From: Gemmatimonadota bacterium
GTDB lineage: Bacteria > Latescibacterota > UBA2968 > UBA8231
NCBI GenBank assembly: GCA_038153405.1
Contig: JAYOYH010000015.1
Location: 836 to 10,973 of the forward strand
Direction of reading: 5' to 3'
DNA: 10,138 bases
The position numbers were made by a program, and so were the translations under genes. Below are positions 688 through 10,138 of the stretch, piece by piece. The number at the start of each line of letters is the position of its first letter. The first letter of the stretch is position 1. Under the pieces are notes generated by a model, which saw nothing but the letters and a program-made list of their open reading frames with translations, was not told the DNA's origin and ran no database searches.

Positions 688-714
688 ATGTGTGAATACC
701 TATAAGAGGTGAAT

Positions 715-1389
715 ATGGGCGCGAAGAAAAATGACGACCTGCGGATAGCGATGCGTCGAAATGAGGTCTCCCGTCTATTCCGGCGCGGTGTGCGCGACCA
801 AACCGAGATTGCTCGCCGCCTGAGCGAGTCGGGGGAATACGGCAGCGTCTCCCAGCCGACTGTTTCCCGCGATCTGGACTTCATACTCCGGAGCGTGCGC
901 GAACAAGCTGGTCTCGAGACCGGACTGCTTCGGGATGCGATCCAGCAAGAGATCCACGAGGTCAAACGCGAGGCCTGGGATGCCTGGGAAAAGAGCAAAG
1001 AGGACAAGGAGACTTTCAAGGACAAGTCCCCTCAGTTTCGCAAGATCGAGCGGGGCAGCGACGACGACAAGGAAGGTCTCCTCGACCGGGCTCTGCGGAT
1101 GGCAAGCGTCGATGAGGGCTACGTGCTGAGCGACAACTTTGAGTGGACCATCGAGAAGCGCGATCCCAACGGCAAATTTTTGGACATCGTGCTCAATTGC
1201 ATCAAGCAGGAGCGCGAGTTGTTGGGCGTCGATAAACCCGCTGCCGCCAACCCCGATGGCGACGGATCTGTCCTGGAGCTAAGCTTTCGCGGGATGAGCG
1301 ATACCGAGCTGGCCCTGTGTGAGGTCATGGTCAAAACTGGTGACAAGGAGGCCCTGGCTCGGTTTGTCTCAGCGAAGAAGAGAGAATAG
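715..1389 (+). CDS. Phage-type HTH protein resembling a terminase small subunit
   Basis: N-terminal HTH (RRNEVSRLFRRG...QTEIARRL...VSQPTVSRDL), helical EAWDAWEKSK and C-terminal KFLDIVLNCIKQERELLGVDKP. I recognise this pattern from phage proteins usually encoded just before terminase large subunits. ATG at 715 has GAGG (706-709) 5 nt upstream; the ORF track's GTG at 709 overlaps that RBS. Confidence 0.6.
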   Translation: MGAKKNDDLRIAMRRNEVSRLFRRGVRDQTEIARRLSESGEYGSVSQPTVSRDLDFILRSVREQAGLETGLLRDAIQQEIHEVKREAWDAWEKSKEDKETFKDKSPQFRKIERGSDDDKEGLLDRALRMASVDEGYVLSDNFEWTIEKRDPNGKFLDIVLNCIKQERELLGVDKPAAANPDGDGSVLELSFRGMSDTELALCEVMVKTGDKEALARFVSAKKRE

Positions 1390-1594: not shown

Positions 1595-2662
1595 ATGGGT
1601 ATAACAGAAAAATCCGAGGGAATGCAAATCATGACTGAGCTAACTGACTTCGATCTTATCTCATTTAAAGTCGCAGACATAGAAGAAACGGCCAAAATCG
1701 TCAAGCAGATGGACGACGGAGTATTGAAAAAGGCTAAGAGCGTGGGTATACGTGGATATCGTTTACTATCCAAAGTTGCGGAGACGAAGGCTACGCCAGA
1801 AAGACTTGCGTGGTTGAATCTTATGACTCAGTCGGTTACTGCCGTTAATGCCGGAATAAGCGCATTTGAGTCGTGCTCGAACTGGACTTTGAAGGTCGTT
1901 CAACGTGCAGTTTTTGAATGGGAACTCATTACAATTGCCATCAGCGGCAACTTCGAACTTCTTGACAACACGCGCCCGTCTCAAGGTAACCCTATAATCT
2001 TCCCTCAAGAATTTAGAGAACGCCAGTCACGCATTTCCTGCGTAGATAGGTTACGAGCATATACTGCGTTCTGTCTTTGGTCGGATAGAGACTACTATCG
2101 GAAGCGAATTAGTGGGAGAAATATGCAGCGTGCATTCACAGAAGAGCGAAGTCCAACTTTAGGTCCTGAATTAGAGGCAAAAGAGGTAGGGCTATTCTTT
2201 GGTAGTTCATCGGAGACGGATCAAGAAGATTTAGACCGTAGGCGCGTGATTGAGCAGGATGCGATACAAAATGAAATTGCTCGAATAGATCAATGGCTTG
2301 TCGATCCCACTCTTCAGCCGTGGACAGAAAAATTATCCAGATTGGCTGAACAACAAAAGGGACCTATGAGTTACTGGCAGCTTATCGACGTTGGCAGATC
2401 TGTTTCTGAAGAATTGCAAAACCTCGATCTGCACTATGCATATTCAATCTATATGAAGGGCTCAATGGCCCTTCATGGATCAACGTTTGAACAATTTTTG
2501 GATATATCGACCGAAAATACTTTTGTGTTCCCGAAGATAATGATCGACGAAGAACAACACGATACTGAACTGGATTTTATAGCGAGTAGTTGTAATGTGA
2601 TGATGGTCTTATTGGCCTCTATGGATCAGAAAATACTTAATAAGTCTGAATTGCGAGGATAG
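1595..2662 (+). CDS. Hypothetical protein, DUF5677-like (HEPN-related helical family)
   Basis: 355-aa ORF with the motifs LKVVQRAVFEWELITIAI (R..hE) and YSIYMKGSMALHGS (Y...S..hHG.), which resemble DUF5677. The true start may be ATG 1631, after GAGGG at 1616-1620. Confidence 0.55.
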   Translation: MGITEKSEGMQIMTELTDFDLISFKVADIEETAKIVKQMDDGVLKKAKSVGIRGYRLLSKVAETKATPERLAWLNLMTQSVTAVNAGISAFESCSNWTLKVVQRAVFEWELITIAISGNFELLDNTRPSQGNPIIFPQEFRERQSRISCVDRLRAYTAFCLWSDRDYYRKRISGRNMQRAFTEERSPTLGPELEAKEVGLFFGSSSETDQEDLDRRRVIEQDAIQNEIARIDQWLVDPTLQPWTEKLSRLAEQQKGPMSYWQLIDVGRSVSEELQNLDLHYAYSIYMKGSMALHGSTFEQFLDISTENTFVFPKIMIDEEQHDTELDFIASSCNVMMVLLASMDQKILNKSELRG

Positions 2663-3422: not shown

Positions 3423-3983
3423 TTATGATGAATGAACCGAGGGGAGAATTACTACATACTCACCAAACTGAATATCAAAGCTACTCGTGTAAATCTTGAA
3501 ATTAGGGAATTGCCCCATAATCTTATCAACAGATTCTGCGTCAATATGTATCTTGGCTAAAGTCTTTGAAGGTTTTAAGATGCCTTCTTTCGCATTCAGG
3601 TTGATTCCAAAATAATTACCATATGGGTTTTGTATATCTTCTCCTGAATGGCTTTGAGAAATTTTTTGCTCTGCGCTCCGAAAATCAACAAGACTTCCTC
3701 GTCCAGTGTGTTCAATCCAGTCGGCGATTATCCAAAAAGTATTGTCCACTGCTTGCTCACCATAGAGGCGAATTGACAGCCACTCGTTTTGAAACTCTTG
3801 CGGATTATCAATGGCTATCGATTCAAGGTGCTCAGCAATTTTTTTATCAATTGCAGCCCCTTTTTTCTCATCTAAGAATGAACGGGCATATTCAACAGCA
3901 CTTCCAGCAACTTCTCGTTGAAGTTTTTGTAGTCTTTCTGTTGGTAGATAAATACCTTCACCCCGGATAAAAAAATAAGCCAT
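3423..3983 (-). CDS. Hypothetical protein with possible ADP-ribosyltransferase (R-S-E type) fold
   Basis: 186-aa AT-rich ORF with a GGAG RBS about 8 nt upstream of the ATG. The motifs YFFIRGE, EWLSIRL and IQFGEYVVIL occur in the order of the R, S and E strands of ARTs. The ORF is well supported; the function is inference. Confidence 0.55.
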   Translation of the reverse strand: MAYFFIRGEGIYLPTERLQKLQREVAGSAVEYARSFLDEKKGAAIDKKIAEHLESIAIDNPQEFQNEWLSIRLYGEQAVDNTFWIIADWIEHTGRGSLVDFRSAEQKISQSHSGEDIQNPYGNYFGINLNAKEGILKPSKTLAKIHIDAESVDKIMGQFPNFKIYTSSFDIQFGEYVVILPSVHSS

Positions 3984-4374: not shown

Positions 4375-6423
4375 TTATTGCACCCCCATCGCCTTAAAGA
4401 CGGCATCCCTCGGATCGGCATAGAAGTTGGTCTGAAACTTGGCGAAGAGTTCACCAGGAATGGTCGGGATGTCGCCGACGCTGGCCATTGGTAAGAGCAG
4501 TCGTTTGGCACCGGCATCGGCCGCAACCTGCAGCGCCTCGGCCAGGTTTTCCACCGGCACGATATTCCCCCCCAGGCTCATGGTGCCAAGCACTACCATC
4601 TGCGGCTCAATTGCTTTTCCAAGCAGACCCGAGCACAACGCTACGAATGCCGATAAGGTCAGTGTAGTAGAAGGACCGGTGTTATGGGATTCGACTACAT
4701 GCAGGTGGTAGTCGTGGTCGCTGGCCTTTGCAGACGATTGGACCTGCGAGATATTCGCGCGGAAGTAGTCGAATCCCACCTTAACGGATTCTCTGGCGGC
4801 CGTGCTCGAACCTAACCCCGAGAGTTTTAGTTGGCCATTGCCGGCAGTGACCTGCGTCTCTAAGCGATACAAGCCAAGGTGTCCACCGCTGCCCCGAGAA
4901 ACGGTATAGAGGGAGCCGGCGGGGAGGGGGTCTTCTGGGATAAGCGAATCGCCGCCCTGCTCTAAGACTTGAACGAGCTTCTCCTCTTCTGTTTCCAAAT
5001 CGATATAGCTGAAGTGCACGTCGTAGAACTCCATACCGCCAATGCGCTTGAGTTGCTCTTTCACACGCCGCCTGGCCTCGAGCGCGTATTCGAGACACAC
5101 TCGGACCGCCTCCTTGTCATAGTCTTCGTGCGGGTAGAGCAACTTGAGGAGGCCCGATACGGTGTGCCTCACGGCGATGGTATCTCGCTGATTGAGGTCT
5201 CGGCCGAGTCTGAAGTATTTGGCGATGGCATCGCCGAAGTTCTGCTTGCGCATCTCTCGGAAAAACTCAGCTAAGTAGTCGACTATGAAGCCATACTGGT
5301 CCGTGAAGAACTCGGGCCGCATCTTGGGTATTTCCCAGCCTGGGATATAGGCGTGAAAGCGGTCAAAGAAGGCGGAGTCGATCATTGCGTCGGGGAAAGG
5401 GGACAGTAGGTGGCTGGTCTTGAGGAGCATTTTAATGTTGTCGATATTGCCAACGAAGACCATTGACGCCGAGGCATTGAGGGAACTTCGTCCGCGCACG
5501 AAAGAGCCCGAGGCCATGTAGTCCTTCATAATCTGAACACCGTCATGGTCTTTGAAATGGATGCCGGCGACTTCGTCAAAAGCGACGACATCCCAGACTC
5601 CGACCAAGCCGATCTGTCGGCGGGCCAGGTTGTAGAAGAGATTGGCGACCGTGGTTTGTCCACCCGAAACCAGGATGCTGTTGGGGCTGACCTCTTTATA
5701 GATGTGGCTCTTACCGGTCCCTTTAGGCCCCAGCTCGCAGACATTGAAGTTGTTTTCAACGAACGGAATCATCCGCGCCAATAAGTGCCACTTGGCCCGC
5801 AGATCCAGGTTGGTCGGTTCCATGCCAGATGAGCGGAGCAACACATCGAGCCACTGCTCTGCGCTAAACTTTCTACGACCTGCCCGAAGGTCGTCCATAT
5901 CCATGTTCGGCATCTGGATTGGTTTGAGCTGCTGCACGGTAAAGGGGGAGCCCTTTTGTCCTTCTTCAAAGAAGTATTCCAACGTGACCAGTGCCCAGAT
6001 GCCGCCTACCAGGAGCTTTTCATACTGTTTGACGGTCGCAGTCGGAACGACGACTTCTTTAATGCCCAGGCTTTGGAAATGGGCCTCGTAGACATCTCGT
6101 CTCTCGTTTAGCTCGACGGTGAGCTTATCGATGACTTTGTAGGTGCCCTTTTCGCGGATAAGCGATTTTATTTTTTCGGCTTCGTCTGGGCGAACAAAGT
6201 TTTCGGAGAGGATGCGTTTGACGGTTTGGAGACCTTCTGCTACGACCTCCTCGTCTTGGGACGAGCAGTAGTTGCCCAACAAGTATTCCAAAACGAAGAC
6301 GGGGACATTGGCCCCTTCCTTGACCAGCTTGGTCAGATCTTTGCGAACGATCTTGCCCGCGAAGTGCTCATTGAGAAGCGAGTCCAGGTCGCCCTGCATC
6401 ACTTCTTCTATCTCAGAAGTCAT
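4375..6423 (-). CDS. brxL: BREX system AAA+ ATPase / Lon-like protein BrxL
   Basis: N-terminus HFAGKIVRKDLTKLVKEGANVPVFVLEYLLGNYC, Walker A GPKGTGKS, Walker B VVAFDEV, SAFFDRFH and a Lon-like C-terminal domain. Lies directly after pglZ. ATG at 6423 has AGGAG 8 nt upstream and overlaps the pglZ end; the ORF track uses TTG 6429. Confidence 0.96.
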   Translation of the reverse strand: MTSEIEEVMQGDLDSLLNEHFAGKIVRKDLTKLVKEGANVPVFVLEYLLGNYCSSQDEEVVAEGLQTVKRILSENFVRPDEAEKIKSLIREKGTYKVIDKLTVELNERRDVYEAHFQSLGIKEVVVPTATVKQYEKLLVGGIWALVTLEYFFEEGQKGSPFTVQQLKPIQMPNMDMDDLRAGRRKFSAEQWLDVLLRSSGMEPTNLDLRAKWHLLARMIPFVENNFNVCELGPKGTGKSHIYKEVSPNSILVSGGQTTVANLFYNLARRQIGLVGVWDVVAFDEVAGIHFKDHDGVQIMKDYMASGSFVRGRSSLNASASMVFVGNIDNIKMLLKTSHLLSPFPDAMIDSAFFDRFHAYIPGWEIPKMRPEFFTDQYGFIVDYLAEFFREMRKQNFGDAIAKYFRLGRDLNQRDTIAVRHTVSGLLKLLYPHEDYDKEAVRVCLEYALEARRRVKEQLKRIGGMEFYDVHFSYIDLETEEEKLVQVLEQGGDSLIPEDPLPAGSLYTVSRGSGGHLGLYRLETQVTAGNGQLKLSGLGSSTAARESVKVGFDYFRANISQVQSSAKASDHDYHLHVVESHNTGPSTTLTLSAFVALCSGLLGKAIEPQMVVLGTMSLGGNIVPVENLAEALQVAADAGAKRLLLPMASVGDIPTIPGELFAKFQTNFYADPRDAVFKAMGVQ

Positions 6424-9028
6424 CGTCAAAGCTCCTATCGATCACAACCGGTATCGACTGCACTTCGGCATCGGTCTCGGCATCGCGAAGTATCAGTTTG
6501 TAAGGGATCGCTTTGTCAAAGGTGCCCGCTTGCAGCTCAAGGCGAAGCGACTTCTTGCGCTCATCGATGCTATCCGATGTGCTATCGAATGTAATGGTCT
6601 CGACCGAGGTGACCTGGCGGAAGCCGTCGTAGACTGCAGCGCGCAATACAATGGGCTTTCTGCGTTCGCTGACGGCCTCGGTCTGGATAATCTCAAAACG
6701 ATAAGTCGGCGTCGTGATTTTGTGATTGGTCCCGAGCACTTGTATGGAAACCTTCTCGCTGCGCGAAGCTTCCTTCTCCTTGCCCCGTAGGTGGGTGACG
6801 GTCACGAGCGGAACGATCACTTCCTGCGGCATCGCACCGCCGTGGATAAAGCGCGCACCACCCGAGAAGTGGAAGCGGTTGGCAGCGCGGGGCACCCAGA
6901 ACTCCATCTCGCCTCCGGCACCGGCCGTCACGCCAATAGAGCCGTGATGCGCCTCGGGCGCTGTGCCGAGTTCCGGTCCGATGATATAGCGCTTCTTGGC
7001 GATTGCTGCATGGGCCGGTTTCGTGCTCAGTGCGCTTTTGTCGGTTTGGTCGGGGGCTTCTCGTTGGAAGAGGAAGCCGTGGTCCGCAGTAACCCACACC
7101 TTGGCGGCGTTTAACTTATTGACGCAGAATTGGACTAATTCTCCTAACTCGTCAATACAGTCAGAGACGGCCTCGAAGGTCTCGCCTTCGGTCGAGGCGC
7201 TATCCCCTCGAGCATCGATAATATTGTGGTAGATATAAACGACCCGTTTGCCCTGAGTAAACTCGCGGGCTTGTTCGAGTTTCATCACCAGTAAGTCTTT
7301 TGCCTGGCAGGCCATTCCGTCTACAGTGGCCAGCTGCTTGCTGCGCCCTTCGGTGCCGACGGCCGGTTTGTCATCGACCAGCACATCCCCTTTGGTATTA
7401 TAGGATAGCGTCTCGTGGGGGAGGAGGCTTGCCATGCCGAGGGCTGTATAGGATGGCAAAACACCTAACATAGCCGAAAGTTGGGCGTTCATTCGGTAGC
7501 GGCCATTGAGCGACTCGGTCAGCTCTCGGGCGGCCTCGTAGCGGAATGCATCGCTGATGATGACAAAAGCCCGTTTGCGCTCAGACTCAGCGAGATGTGA
7601 GGAGATTTTGCTGGCATAGAAGTTTTGCTGAGCTGGCAGGTCTTTGAGCGACCACTCGTCCAGGAAGCCGGCATCCAGTAGGCGACTCCACTCGATGCCA
7701 AGGGGTTGCAAAAAGCCCTGGTCGTAAACGCGTTCGACCTCTTCGGCCAGCGTCTTGAGCAAGTCCCAGCCCTGGCCGAGTGCAGGTTTGGAATAGGTGC
7801 AGAAATGGCGATAGAGTTGGTCGAAGCGATGGAGGTCTTTCTGGTAGGCTGTGAGCAGATCTAAAGGCGTTTCAAAGCTCAGGGCATATCGGTGCTCGGT
7901 ATGCAGGGCAAAGAGCTCAGCGGCCGCTTCGATAGCGTCGTAGGCATCGGCGATGGCCCTTCGCTCTGGTAGATCGCTCCCAGGACCAGATAGCCAGTGT
8001 CCTGCCTTCCGCGCACTGGTTATCCCTGCTATGAAGTCCACATCTACGGACTCGGTATTGCTCAGTAGGTGTTCCTTCAAAGTGGAGACTACGCGCCTCT
8101 CGGCTGCCCAGAACGTGAAGACATTCTTGATGGTCTCGAGATCGAGCGTTGCCAGGGGCTCATCGACCTTTTGCTCAGAGGATACGGCGGCCGCTGCAGC
8201 GGCGTAGCTGCTCGCACTGCTATTGGAGTCTCGCCACTGGGTTAGGAAGACCACCGCATTGCGCCGGCCAGCAGGGGGCAGGTGGTGGTGGGTGAGGGAC
8301 TCCATCTCTGCTCCCTCTGTCTGATGGAAGAGCTCTGCGACAAAGAGCCTGCGCAAAAGCCCGGCCACAGTGGGGTCCTCGACCGCGTAGCCGAATTCGC
8401 GTCGCATCAGTGCCCAGAAGGAGTCCAGCAGATCCATTTTTTCAAGTGTCGATATTACTTCGGGGATTTCACTCAATTCAAAGCGATGACGCTCGACGTG
8501 ACTATGGTATAAAGCGCGCAGCACGTCGAAGGGGTGTGCAACCGAACTGCCGACCAATACGGCCATCATCTTGAGGTCGATGCCCGCCTCGTCGTCTTTG
8601 GTGCTAATGAGTCGCGCCAGTTTCTTGCGTCGGTCCTGGCTGCCCATAAATGTGGCGCGTGCTTTGAGGTGGTCGCGTAGGGAGAGTCGGCTCAGTCCCA
8701 GTTCTTGCAGCCAGATACTGGTCACATCGGCGTGGAACTCGGCGCTATAGAGCCGAATATCGAGCAGCCAGTCCTCTTCGGCTGGTAGGGTTTCGCCTTT
8801 AGTGTAGATCAGGTATTTACCAGTAGGGTCCTCGCGCTCCAGTCGCAGCTTGGCCGAAAGGCCACCGACCTCTTCGACGTGGAGCACTTTTATATCACTA
8901 AAATTCGCCGGTAGATCCTCTCGCACATATTCGGCAAACTCTTCGTTGGGATCGTGCCAGAAGACCAGTCGTGCGCCTTCCGTTACGAACTTCTGGTGGA
9001 GTGCCTGATCGACTTGTTCTGCCTTCAT
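6413..9028 (-). CDS. pglZ: BREX type 1 alkaline-phosphatase-superfamily protein PglZ
   Basis: 871 aa with PglZ motifs RLVFWHDP, AFVIISDAFRYE, LPSYTALGMASLLPH, YIYHNIIDARGD, VTADHGFLF and RFIHGGAMPQEVIVP. Sits between pglX and brxL. Confidence 0.96.
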   Translation of the reverse strand: MKAEQVDQALHQKFVTEGARLVFWHDPNEEFAEYVREDLPANFSDIKVLHVEEVGGLSAKLRLEREDPTGKYLIYTKGETLPAEEDWLLDIRLYSAEFHADVTSIWLQELGLSRLSLRDHLKARATFMGSQDRRKKLARLISTKDDEAGIDLKMMAVLVGSSVAHPFDVLRALYHSHVERHRFELSEIPEVISTLEKMDLLDSFWALMRREFGYAVEDPTVAGLLRRLFVAELFHQTEGAEMESLTHHHLPPAGRRNAVVFLTQWRDSNSSASSYAAAAAAVSSEQKVDEPLATLDLETIKNVFTFWAAERRVVSTLKEHLLSNTESVDVDFIAGITSARKAGHWLSGPGSDLPERRAIADAYDAIEAAAELFALHTEHRYALSFETPLDLLTAYQKDLHRFDQLYRHFCTYSKPALGQGWDLLKTLAEEVERVYDQGFLQPLGIEWSRLLDAGFLDEWSLKDLPAQQNFYASKISSHLAESERKRAFVIISDAFRYEAARELTESLNGRYRMNAQLSAMLGVLPSYTALGMASLLPHETLSYNTKGDVLVDDKPAVGTEGRSKQLATVDGMACQAKDLLVMKLEQAREFTQGKRVVYIYHNIIDARGDSASTEGETFEAVSDCIDELGELVQFCVNKLNAAKVWVTADHGFLFQREAPDQTDKSALSTKPAHAAIAKKRYIIGPELGTAPEAHHGSIGVTAGAGGEMEFWVPRAANRFHFSGGARFIHGGAMPQEVIVPLVTVTHLRGKEKEASRSEKVSIQVLGTNHKITTPTYRFEIIQTEAVSERRKPIVLRAAVYDGFRQVTSVETITFDSTSDSIDERKKSLRLELQAGTFDKAIPYKLILRDAETDAEVQSIPVVIDRSFDDDF

Positions 9029-9063
9029 TATGTTGTCGCCTTGCTACCGTGCATGGTCTTCGC
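9028..9063 (-). repeat. Degenerate second copy of the pglX 3' end (matches 9913-9948, offset 885 bp)
   Basis: 9037-9063 vs 9922-9948 match at 22/27 nt with no gaps. It translates AKTMHGSKATT* vs pglX VKAVHGKKAEV*, with the TAA in the same register. Confidence 0.8.
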
Positions 9064-9068
9064 CACAT

Positions 9069-9908
9069 TCAATCACCTTGAATGAAGTTACGTCGTTTTA
9101 GGTAGCTAATCAGTATGCTTTGGATGTCTGCTTTTAGCTTGCCCGGTTGTTCGAAATCCACTCGTCTATGGTGTTCGAAGTCGAATGGAGTCACGTCATT
9201 CAATAAATCCTTGGTTCTGTTCTGTTTGAGAATCAGGATCTGGTCGTCATTCTTTTTTGTTAGAGCATAGCTGAGTTCAAAAACGACGTTTGAGTTCGGG
9301 TGGCACTTTGCAGAAGCCACATCTGAATCTGCTTTGCTCTGCTTAGCACCGTTTTCAGCGTCTATGCTCAGAACCTGAGAGATATTCGTCACATCAAATA
9401 TCGCGAACATACAGAGGTCGATATTCTTCTTGATAGCTTGAACTATATCACCCGCCCCATCCTCGTCTCGTGTTGCCTCAACAACCTCTAAGGTGGCTCG
9501 GGGGGAATGGTTGTTGTTTATGTGGTCAACCGCTTCTTTTAGAGCCTTGCCAATCTTACTTCTCGCTGGATTGTGGTCCGATTGCCAACTGTAGAAAATC
9601 CAAGGCTGGTGTCCAATCGGAACATTTAGCCGTTCGAAATATAGTTCGTTCTCAGTTAGGTCACAGTTCGCGAGACGATATACACCGCTACCGTCGAGGT
9701 AGAATCGCACCTCCTCTCCACGCAGAAAAGGGGTATACCATTCTTGCGACTCAAGTGTGTCGCGATCTTCTATCGCAAATCCGCGATAGCCATTCTTGAG
9801 GATACTCTTCTTCAGGATGCTAAAAGACGGATCGTTCTGTTTGACTTCTTCTGGGTCGGCTATTGCGTTTGAGACATGCCAACACTTGACAGTTGTAAAT
9901 CTTGCCAC
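9069..9908 (-). CDS. BREX-embedded accessory protein: unknown ~100-aa N-terminal domain plus TIR-like/NDT-like domain
   Basis: 279 aa with a GTG start 4 nt after the pglX stop and GGAGGT inside the last pglX codons. The C-terminal motifs IFYSWQSD, G..DI...I...ID.C...IFDVT, PNSNVVFELSYA (putative catalytic Glu) and PFDF.H.R are typical of TIR/NDT-fold nucleotide-processing domains. Confidence 0.75.
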   Translation of the reverse strand: MARFTTVKCWHVSNAIADPEEVKQNDPSFSILKKSILKNGYRGFAIEDRDTLESQEWYTPFLRGEEVRFYLDGSGVYRLANCDLTENELYFERLNVPIGHQPWIFYSWQSDHNPARSKIGKALKEAVDHINNNHSPRATLEVVEATRDEDGAGDIVQAIKKNIDLCMFAIFDVTNISQVLSIDAENGAKQSKADSDVASAKCHPNSNVVFELSYALTKKNDDQILILKQNRTKDLLNDVTPFDFEHHRRVDFEQPGKLKADIQSILISYLKRRNFIQGD

Positions 9909-9912
9909 GCGA

Positions 9913-10138
9913 TTACACCTCCGCCTTTTTACCGTGCACGGCCTTCACTTCAGCCAATAGGTCGCCGAATTTGCCATAGTTTACTTTCACGCCGTCGTCG
10001 AGGTTGAGTTCAATGCGCATATCGGCGTAGTGGCGAAGCTTTTCATCAAATACGAGAAGTTCCACTTGTTGCTTTTCGAGCGTGGATCGCTCCTTCTCGA
10101 GTCGCTTCTGATGGGCAGTAGAGGTTGCCCCTTGGATG
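9913..10138 (-). CDS. pglX: BREX adenine methyltransferase PglX (BrxX), C-terminal 74 codons; gene runs off the window
   Basis: Not in the ORF track. My minus-strand translation is IQGATSTAHQKRLEKERSTLEKQQVELLVFDEKLRHYADMRIELNLDDGVKVNYGKFGDLLAEVKAVHGKKAEV*, which contains the characteristic PglX C-terminal LDDGVKVNYGKFGDLLA motif upstream of pglZ. Confidence 0.93.
   Translation of the reverse strand, partial: IQGATSTAHQKRLEKERSTLEKQQVELLVFDEKLRHYADMRIELNLDDGVKVNYGKFGDLLAEVKAVHGKKAEV

Follow-up and report, generated by a model that had tools for sequence, protein, structure and literature searches.

Cap12/Pycsar-type TIR effectors are known in combination with STING or cNMP-binding sensors and with a partner cyclase. 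In SfSTING, as described in the available text of PMC9402430, the TIR domains dimerize through alphaC, display a strand hairpin extension, and complete the active site with D110 from the dimer mate; the hairpin before alphaC is called unique to the SfSTING TIR in that text. Wang et al. 2024 report, in the part of the paper available (PMC11350192), that 12 of 32 tested TIR candidates protected. Stand-alone TIRs were discarded in a Thoeris survey, according to its accessible portion (bioRxiv 2025.12.03.692087). The slot between pglX and pglZ of BREX operons is a known site of accessory genes, and backup nucleases have been catalogued for BREX (PMC12839542, available text); the term TIR is absent from the main text of this 2026 survey, whose supplement may list such neighbours. 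In Salmonella BREX the interval hosts a secondary system, PARIS, as the first-pass annotation of the present locus had stated and as the accessible parts of PMC9009780 and PMC11341690 bear out.

Described here is a gene found in this slot, referred to as gene X, together with its relatives. The window, i.e., the whole stretch of DNA that was analysed, is 10,138 nt in length. Gene X is a real and new sensor-effector architecture, built on a known type of TIR enzyme and situated in a known hotspot. The features of the locus, all on the minus strand, are:

9913..10137, minus strand: 3′ end of pglX, the BREX-1 methyltransferase (PADLOC and NCBIfam)
9917..9922, minus strand: GGAGGT ribosome-binding-like site within the pglX tail, 8 nt 5′ of the gene X GTG (from sequence)
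9069..9908, minus strand: gene X, encoding a 279-aa protein with an N-terminal beta-barrel and a Cap12-type TIR
9615..9908, minus strand: N-terminal domain, residues 1-98, small beta-barrel, predicted sensor (AlphaFold, Foldseek, VIA, alignments)
9081..9614, minus strand: TIR domain, residues 99-276, Cap12/Pycsar type with a hairpin before alphaC (Pfam, AlphaFold model, Foldseek, VIA)
9276..9278, minus strand: codon of E211, aligned with catalytic E84 of the SfSTING TIR (profile alignment)
9180..9182, minus strand: codon of D243, aligned with SfSTING D110, which completes the active site from the dimer mate (alignment, dimer model)
9028..9063, minus strand: 36-nt diverged copy of the pglX 3′ end, an insertion scar whose terminal TAA overlaps the pglZ ATG
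6413..9028, minus strand: pglZ type A (Pfam, PADLOC, NCBIfam; TIGR02687, 798.7 bits)
4375..6429, minus strand: brxL (Pfam, PADLOC, NCBIfam; TIGR02653)

The operon around gene X is a type 1 BREX. Three brxA/B/C-like ORFs, labelled by gene order and size, are upstream on the same contig, C15. A 10-N assembly gap is present within pglX at C15:10974-10983, just past window position 10138, and the frame differs across it, so that pglX may not be intact at this locus. Other ORFs of the window were also noted. Directly after brxL, at 3423-3983 on the minus strand, is an AT-rich 186-aa ORF (GC 38.9%, GC3 0.31) with no match in Pfam, PADLOC, NCBIfam or PHROGs; it is possibly another cargo gene. An AT-rich 355-aa ORF at 1595-2662 (plus strand) shows one weak PHROG match (E 0.014) and none in Pfam, PADLOC or NCBIfam. 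At 709-1389 (plus strand) there is a 226-aa ORF with an HTH (Arg_repressor, E 1e-4) and a match to phrog_645 (E 8e-12), which we take to resemble an HTH protein of the phage terminase-small-subunit type; the left end of the window may thus belong to a mobile element.

The GTG start codon of gene X is separated from the pglX stop (9913) by 4 nt, and 40 nt lie between its own end and the pglZ ATG (9028); the start position is common to homologues. The first-pass annotation had pointed to an AT-richer gene within BREX, and this was borne out: the GC content is 45.8% and GC3 is 0.49, against a GC of 54-57% and a GC3 of 0.62-0.68 in the six BREX genes and a genome GC of 59.4%. In comparisons with three relatives, identity at codon positions 1-2 is 59-89% but at position 3 only 32-44%; thus gene X is under purifying selection as a protein. 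A word-seeded search gave 61 proteins at E<=0.001, the window protein included, nearly all full length and 41-75% identical. The novelty check called for earlier gave no PADLOC match at E<=0.1 (PADLOC-DB 2.0.0, 2023) and none in NCBIfam; PHROGs gave a single weak match over 38 residues (E 0.009), and a PDB sequence search revealed nothing meaningful. Promoter and terminator scans scored at chance level. In the one RNA run listed, X15, coverage is confined to fragments of pglZ that come from a related strain, with none over gene X, and the run is uninformative on gene X expression in either direction.

Gene X is a late insertion between pglX and pglZ. The scar at 9028-9063 matches 9913-9948 at 25 of 36 nt without gaps, a score reached by none of 20,000 shuffles, and the pglX tail is its best non-self match within the window. 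In contigs from two other studies, runs X5 and X7, position 9030 is joined to 9932 and gene X is skipped. The shorter side of the junction is 23 nt at a depth of 2 in run X5, which is weak alone, and 61 nt in run X7, with one mismatch on the pglZ side. Thus near-identical BREX alleles exist in which pglX abuts pglZ. Full-length gene X was found in none of 40 relatives, and the PglZ of this locus is absent from the 75 same-family genomes searched; both have therefore arrived by transfer.

Within the Saprospiraceae family 3 of 301 genomes carry the gene, the centre included. None of 72,556 plasmid records has gene X at full length, though 259 carry a PglZ relative. No gene X relative was found in viral contigs and phage records, and a scan of viral contigs for PglZ found nothing. 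In the closest BREX loci checked, the pglX-pglZ slot contains toxin-antitoxin genes in L134 and is empty in L135 and L136; by these comparisons the slot is an insertion hotspot of a general kind. In L136, a related BREX in G030, pglZ is frameshifted and pglX is broken up by other ORFs, one of which is presumably transposase-like.

The C-terminal domain had been read as a TIR/NDT fold with its Glu in the motif NVVFELSYA, and both sequence motifs quoted in that reading are present in the ORF. The gene X protein matches PF10137 (CAP12-PCTIR_TIR) with 21.2 bits and E 2.9e-4, which is below the gathering cut-off of 24.7 bits. All 60 aligned family members match PF10137 at E<=0.1 (best 9.6e-8), as against 2 of 60 relatives for PF05014 (NDT; best E 0.053), to which the gene X protein has no match at E<=1. 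The protein is also without a Pfam match to PF08937. E211, the Glu of the motif, is invariant in 60 of 60 aligned members.

An AlphaFold model from the 60-sequence alignment has a pLDDT of 88.2. Foldseek places bacterial TIR-STING chains, 9lmq and 7un8, at ranks 1-5 (E 2.4e-5 to 3.2e-4) and DNPH1 chains at ranks 6 and 8 (E 4.6e-4 and 8.3e-4). By VIA, SfSTING (7un8_A) has Z 12.8, rmsd 2.7 and 131 aligned residues, tied with TIRAP (13.3) and MAL (12.9); the glycosidases score Z 11.5 (MilB) and about 10.5 (NDTs). The model displays a strand hairpin before alphaC at residues 177-179 and 201-203. In a profile built from 64 relatives the alignment with 7un8 is weak (E 0.82), and it places E211, N207, F210 and D243 on SfSTING E84, N80, F83 and D110, with residue numbers checked against the available text of PMC9402430. 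SfSTING R78 is aligned with N205, thus one substrate contact differs. Together with the dimer prediction described below, the model, the fold searches and the profile alignment allow a closer assignment of the fold, to the Cap12/Pycsar type of TIR and away from the NDT glycosidases.

Among TIR-only relatives, 35 of 64 match PADLOC CBASS TIR effector models and 23 of 64 match PDC-S35. The TIR subtype of gene X is also joined to many other partner domains. In P0086, P0091 and P0101, for example, winged-helix-like domains are combined with a C-terminal fusion of the closest TIR subtype, and this architecture is likewise unannotated.

When two copies were modelled together with NAD, a symmetric dimer was predicted with an ipSAE of 0.76 against 0.00 for the best control; the ipSAE mark is reached by 20 of 30 solved homodimers and by 1 of 23 monomers. 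At least 80% of the contacts agree between homodimer runs, and the partner pLDDT is 80-81. The predicted interface comprises residues 176-180, 201-218 and 241-246, and would be the same alphaC interface as in SfSTING, with D243 positioned beside the E211 helix of the partner. This score may owe something to the resemblance between the protein and TIR-STING or DNPH1 dimers of solved structure; as a modelling result it points to Cap12-dimer likeness, separately from any claim of activity.

The N-terminal 98 residues had been described as beta-rich and unrecognised, and this description holds. Folded alone, the domain is a beta-rich barrel with a pLDDT of 85.7. It has no match in Pfam, PADLOC, NCBIfam or PHROGs; Foldseek, which the first-pass annotation had suggested, gave for the barrel nothing at E<=0.001 in PDB or BFVD (E>=0.07), and ESM Atlas gave no significant match. 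VIA ranks a phage tail-tube protein (Z 6.8) and a baseplate protein (Z 6.7) at the top, together with PilZ domains (6.4, 6.3 and 6.2), all below the Z mark of 8, under which a match may represent a common arrangement only. The alignment with PilZ 4i86_B has Z 6.4, rmsd 3.2 and 73 aligned residues, without a PilZ match in Pfam. The c-di-GMP motifs of PilZ domains are RxxxR and D/NxSxxG, and neither was found in the barrel sequence.

The barrel is strongly conserved. Near-invariant residues are W10, S35, L37, K38, R42, W57, G73-S74-G75, N81, D83, E88 and Y90; of 119 cyanobacterial relatives 118-119 retain them, and in the close group the proportion is 89-100%. Conservation of the barrel exceeds that of the TIR in every comparison made: barrel and TIR identities are 80/63, 62/55 and 61/52% to L084-L086, respectively, and 31/27% to cyanobacterial members. 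From this pattern we infer that a conserved ligand binds to the barrel. The higher conservation of the barrel relative to the TIR, and its invariant polar residues, make a small molecule a better candidate for this ligand than a phage protein. The only barrel partners found are of the TIR/NDT type; a distant relative, P0142, has the same barrel with a more NDT-like domain (PF05014, E 1.9e-5). No barrel fusions were detected among 63 candidate proteins of 490-2000 aa, which is weak evidence.

Besides the window, the matches listed represent 14 distinct loci (L001-L008, L084-L087, L089 and L129), with the repeat loci L088, L090-L092, L127 and L128 excluded. From 98 neighbours listed, 57 were hand-picked for PADLOC and 52 for Pfam. 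The expectation that homologues reside in defence loci agrees with the raw count from these hand-picked neighbours, by which 9 of the 14 loci among the matches listed have defence-type neighbours. L085 represents a second pglX-X-pglZ arrangement, in which PglX, PglZ and X are 48%, 44% and 57% identical to those of the window. In the same locus (L085:2524-16345) brxC and pglX are separated by a Schlafen/AlbA gene, and a Lamassu system directly follows brxL. In L084, between UvrD and RecQ helicase genes, a pglX remnant is directly upstream of the gene (tblastn E 1e-11), and in L086 the gene follows what we take, by eye, to be an hsdS-like end. In L003 a single small ORF separates the gene from a preceding type I RM operon, with Hachiman nearby; the gene is after PDC-M33B/C and near an integrase in L002, amid Mrr, AbiJ-caspase and DUF4238 genes in L005, and in L087 it comes after a pair of genes for ThsB-like TIRs, with an 8xMP membrane gene also adjacent. 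Neighbours of L001 and L004 are of a weaker defence type, and the neighbourhood of L007 is ambiguous; L006, L008, L089 and L129 show no defence neighbour among those scanned. No conserved effector neighbour was found across the 14 loci among the matches listed.

The window gene is part of a subclade of 37 rows (SH-aLRT 98). The trees are quick, with SH-aLRT support only, and the subclade tree omits 16 cyanobacterial rows and 4 duplicates. All four subclade loci with DNA available (the window, L084, L085 and L086) follow the end of a methyltransferase or specificity gene, i.e., pglX, a pglX remnant or an hsdS-like end, thus the tie to restriction-type operons is real. The two BREX-slot genes, in the window and L085, are not sisters in the tree, which requires two changes. 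Gene X is not a core or regular accessory component of BREX: an intact BREX surrounds the gene in 1 of 14 related loci among the matches listed, none of nine GTDB carrier genomes (mostly incomplete MAGs, all outside the subclade of the window) has a BREX-1 PglX over the cut-off, and the plasmid records, the L134-L136 slots and the empty alleles show the operon without the gene. Of the guarding role that had been proposed for BREX, the association with restriction operons has stood and the specificity for BREX is weakened.

Relatives are unexpectedly widespread in cyanobacteria, and this branch is by far the larger one. An exhaustive search revealed proteins of about 255 aa with both domains, annotated only as hypothetical proteins, in 1,401 cyanobacterial clusters. 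In ESM Atlas the cyanobacterial protein P0075 matches unnamed cyanobacterial clusters and one PF10137 cluster at 0.87. In a phylum sample 58 of 221 genomes have the architecture, a few as TIR-only or split matches; in a class sample of 121 genomes it is present in 83, at full length in 81, and almost always as a single copy. At 19 of 32 loci mltA, a Mo-nitro_C gene or a conserved gene for an 83-aa protein is found no more than 1.5 kb away. The conserved 83-aa protein is encoded between the orthologue and mltA in 18 of 32 loci (L109:1193-1444 and 17 others); it has no Pfam match and is a possible partner of the cyanobacterial orthologue.

E211 is kept in 117 of 119 cyanobacterial members and D243 in 108 of 119. 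Since these residues are kept in a stable neighbourhood that does not look like defence, the architecture need not mean defence. The WQSD motif is lost in the cyanobacterial TIR (W108 is present in 100% of the close group and is mixed in cyanobacteria), thus the mobile and cyanobacterial branches may differ in function. The TIRs of the two branches form separate supported groups (window branch SH-aLRT 97), in a tree whose root is not resolved, and one Chroococcidiopsis genome has both forms. Some Thermosynechococcus entries (P0240 and P0238) are a 92-100 aa piece only (tsl1262), and in one genome the two halves are about 110 kb apart (G168:C1:1311246-1311503 and 1201725-1202204). From such pieces and separated halves the cyanobacterial gene looks dispensable in some lineages.

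The reading that we prefer, and to which we give about equal chances of being right or wrong, is that the gene X protein is a stand-alone, ligand-gated TIR NADase of the Cap12 type, an abortive-infection gene that is co-expressed with BREX but does not need it. By analogy with TIR-STING, the TIR dimer would be latent at rest. The barrel would bind a small, conserved ligand, probably a nucleotide that is formed when the cell is infected or when restriction is active, and binding would lead to higher-order packing of dimers. D243 of the dimer mate would then complete the E211 site, NAD+ would be hydrolysed, and the infected cell would arrest. The ligand, the assembly, the NADase activity and the role in defence are carried over from SfSTING, and the fold and dimer are predicted; the observations proper are the scar and the empty alleles, the patchy distribution, the conservation of E211 and D243, and the defence-type surroundings of most relatives. 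Points against this reading are the missing PADLOC match and the PF10137 score under the cut-off, the substitution at the R78 position, the four loci with no defence neighbour, the cyanobacterial neighbourhoods, the lack of a signal-making partner in the genomes searched, and the modest success rate (12 of 32) of the TIR candidates of Wang et al. 2024. The gene likely hitch-hikes in DNA-restriction operons rather than serving as a dedicated BREX guard.

That gene X guards BREX or RM machines we regard as rather unlikely. The barrel would in this case respond to a PglX/HsdS-type complex, either inhibited or active, or to what that complex produces, and would trigger the TIR once a phage delivers an anti-restriction protein. 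Such a guard would account for the placement of all four subclade loci (SH-aLRT 98) and of L003 behind restriction genes, and it has precedents in Salmonella PARIS, which occupies the same slot (PMC9009780 and PMC11341690, accessible parts), and in the backup effectors proposed for BREX generally (PMC12839542, available text). Yet the gene persists in L084 after pglX has shrunk to a scar, PglX is over the cut-off in none of the nine carriers (mostly incomplete MAGs outside the subclade), the slot is occupied by toxin-antitoxin genes in L134 and vacant in both L135 and L136, the tree does not place the two BREX-slot genes as sisters, and cyanobacterial genes located far from any BREX keep the barrel invariant. 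In addition, the embedded Salmonella PARIS did not respond to Ocr, according to the available text of PMC11341690. A non-defence role, as an enzyme of nucleotide metabolism or stress signalling such as may operate in cyanobacteria, with the mobile copies as passengers in insertion hotspots, is unlikely. The single-copy presence in most cyanobacterial genomes sampled (83 of 121), the conserved neighbours and the retained catalytic residues argue for it, as do several Saprospiraceae copies amid ordinary genes (L006, L008 and L129). The window branch, however, is separate (SH-aLRT 97) and rare, its members are spread over several phyla and mostly adjoin defence genes, and its AT content is above that of the host; and the cyanobacterial TIR is without the WQSD motif, such that the branches may differ in function.

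Two further possibilities concern the chemistry of the TIR. An N-glycosidase of the NDT/DNPH1/MilB type would strip bases from (modified) nucleotides and starve phage DNA synthesis. In the structural searches DNPH1 chains take Foldseek ranks 6 and 8, and MilB has Z 11.5, with NDTs at about 10.5; in P0142 the partner of the barrel is more NDT-like, and N-glycosidases of this type also form symmetric dimers. We nonetheless consider this quite improbable, as TIR-STING ranks above DNPH1, all 60 members match PF10137 but no more than 2 of them PF05014, and Cap12 is the counterpart of the N-V-V-F-E segment, of the hairpin and of the P-x-D loop. Less probable still is a Thoeris-like, signal-making TIR, in which the barrel senses phage, possibly through a tail-tube-like protein, while an effector encoded at another site would respond to a cADPR isomer produced by the TIR. 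The ThsB-like and 8xMP genes beside L087 and the tail-tube and baseplate proteins as best structural neighbours of the barrel (Z 6.8 and 6.7) are in its favour; but the 14 loci listed share no conserved effector neighbour, ThsB was found in 0 of 5 genomes, Z values under 8 may represent a common arrangement only, BFVD contained nothing at E<=0.001, and the domain is of the Cap12/Pycsar effector type. The ligand-gated NADase can be extended into a broader and doubtful proposal, in which the barrel would be a new nucleotide-second-messenger receptor, the mobile branch a metabolite-wired, cyclase-free backup for BREX and type I restriction, and the cyanobacterial branch an everyday, non-immune form of TIR signalling.

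Several known systems were compared with gene X. A CBASS or Pycsar system, which would have a nucleotide cyclase next to it and a STING, SAVED or cNMP-binding sensor, was rejected, as the neighbours are pglX and pglZ and a search for SMODS found it in 0 of 1 own genome (93% complete) and in 1 of 5 other genomes. Thoeris was also rejected, since there is no PF08937 match and no conserved effector neighbour, and ThsB-like genes are found beside L087 only. No signal-making partner was found in the genomes searched for SMODS and ThsB. The NDT, DNPH1 and MilB enzymes share the core fold and a Glu on the equivalent helix, but are lower in rank and have no N-terminal barrel, and the motif and hairpin of gene X follow Cap12. 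PilZ and tail-tube/Hcp proteins are likewise small beta-barrels (Z 5-6.8, rmsd 2.5-4 and 67-95 aligned residues in the top rows), but differ in that Z is below 8, Foldseek E is >=0.07 in PDB and BFVD, and the PilZ motifs are absent.

PARIS (AriAB) of Salmonella BREX is similar as one or more accessory genes in the same pglX-pglZ slot of a type 1 BREX (PMC9009780 and PMC11341690, accessible parts), but it is a two-gene ATPase/DUF4435 system without homology to gene X, which is one TIR gene found mostly without BREX. The present locus records the entry of cargo into this slot, through the duplicated pglX tail, a pglX scar that travels with the gene, and empty, near-identical alleles. The E. coli systems TIR-V and TIR-VI, together with TIR-IX (Wang et al. 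2024, PMC11350192, in the text available), are also single, TIR-dependent genes with no other recognised domain; as described there they consist of a short TIR domain only, which would set them apart from gene X. A literature search, to which subscription papers were outside the scope, found no description of a barrel-TIR family. Whether a TIR enzyme of the immune type can also serve a routine function in the cell is a question that the cyanobacterial branch opens to direct genetics in standard laboratory strains of cyanobacteria.

The closest likeness is to the Cap12 TIR-STING proteins (SfSTING 7un8; 9lmq) and the Pycsar TIR, in the TIR subtype, the catalytic Glu, the partner Asp and the predicted alphaC dimer with its hairpin, and in the combination of one sensor domain with one TIR. 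In PycTIR the sensor is N-terminal, the same order as in the gene X protein. The differences are that their sensors are STING or cNMP-binding domains and that of gene X is an unrelated beta-barrel, and that gene X is without an adjacent cyclase gene, scores under the Pfam cut-off and has Asn in place of R78. The gene X family joins the same enzyme to an unannotated, strongly conserved barrel without a cyclase, so that the identity of its ligand would add a new trigger of NAD-depletion immunity.
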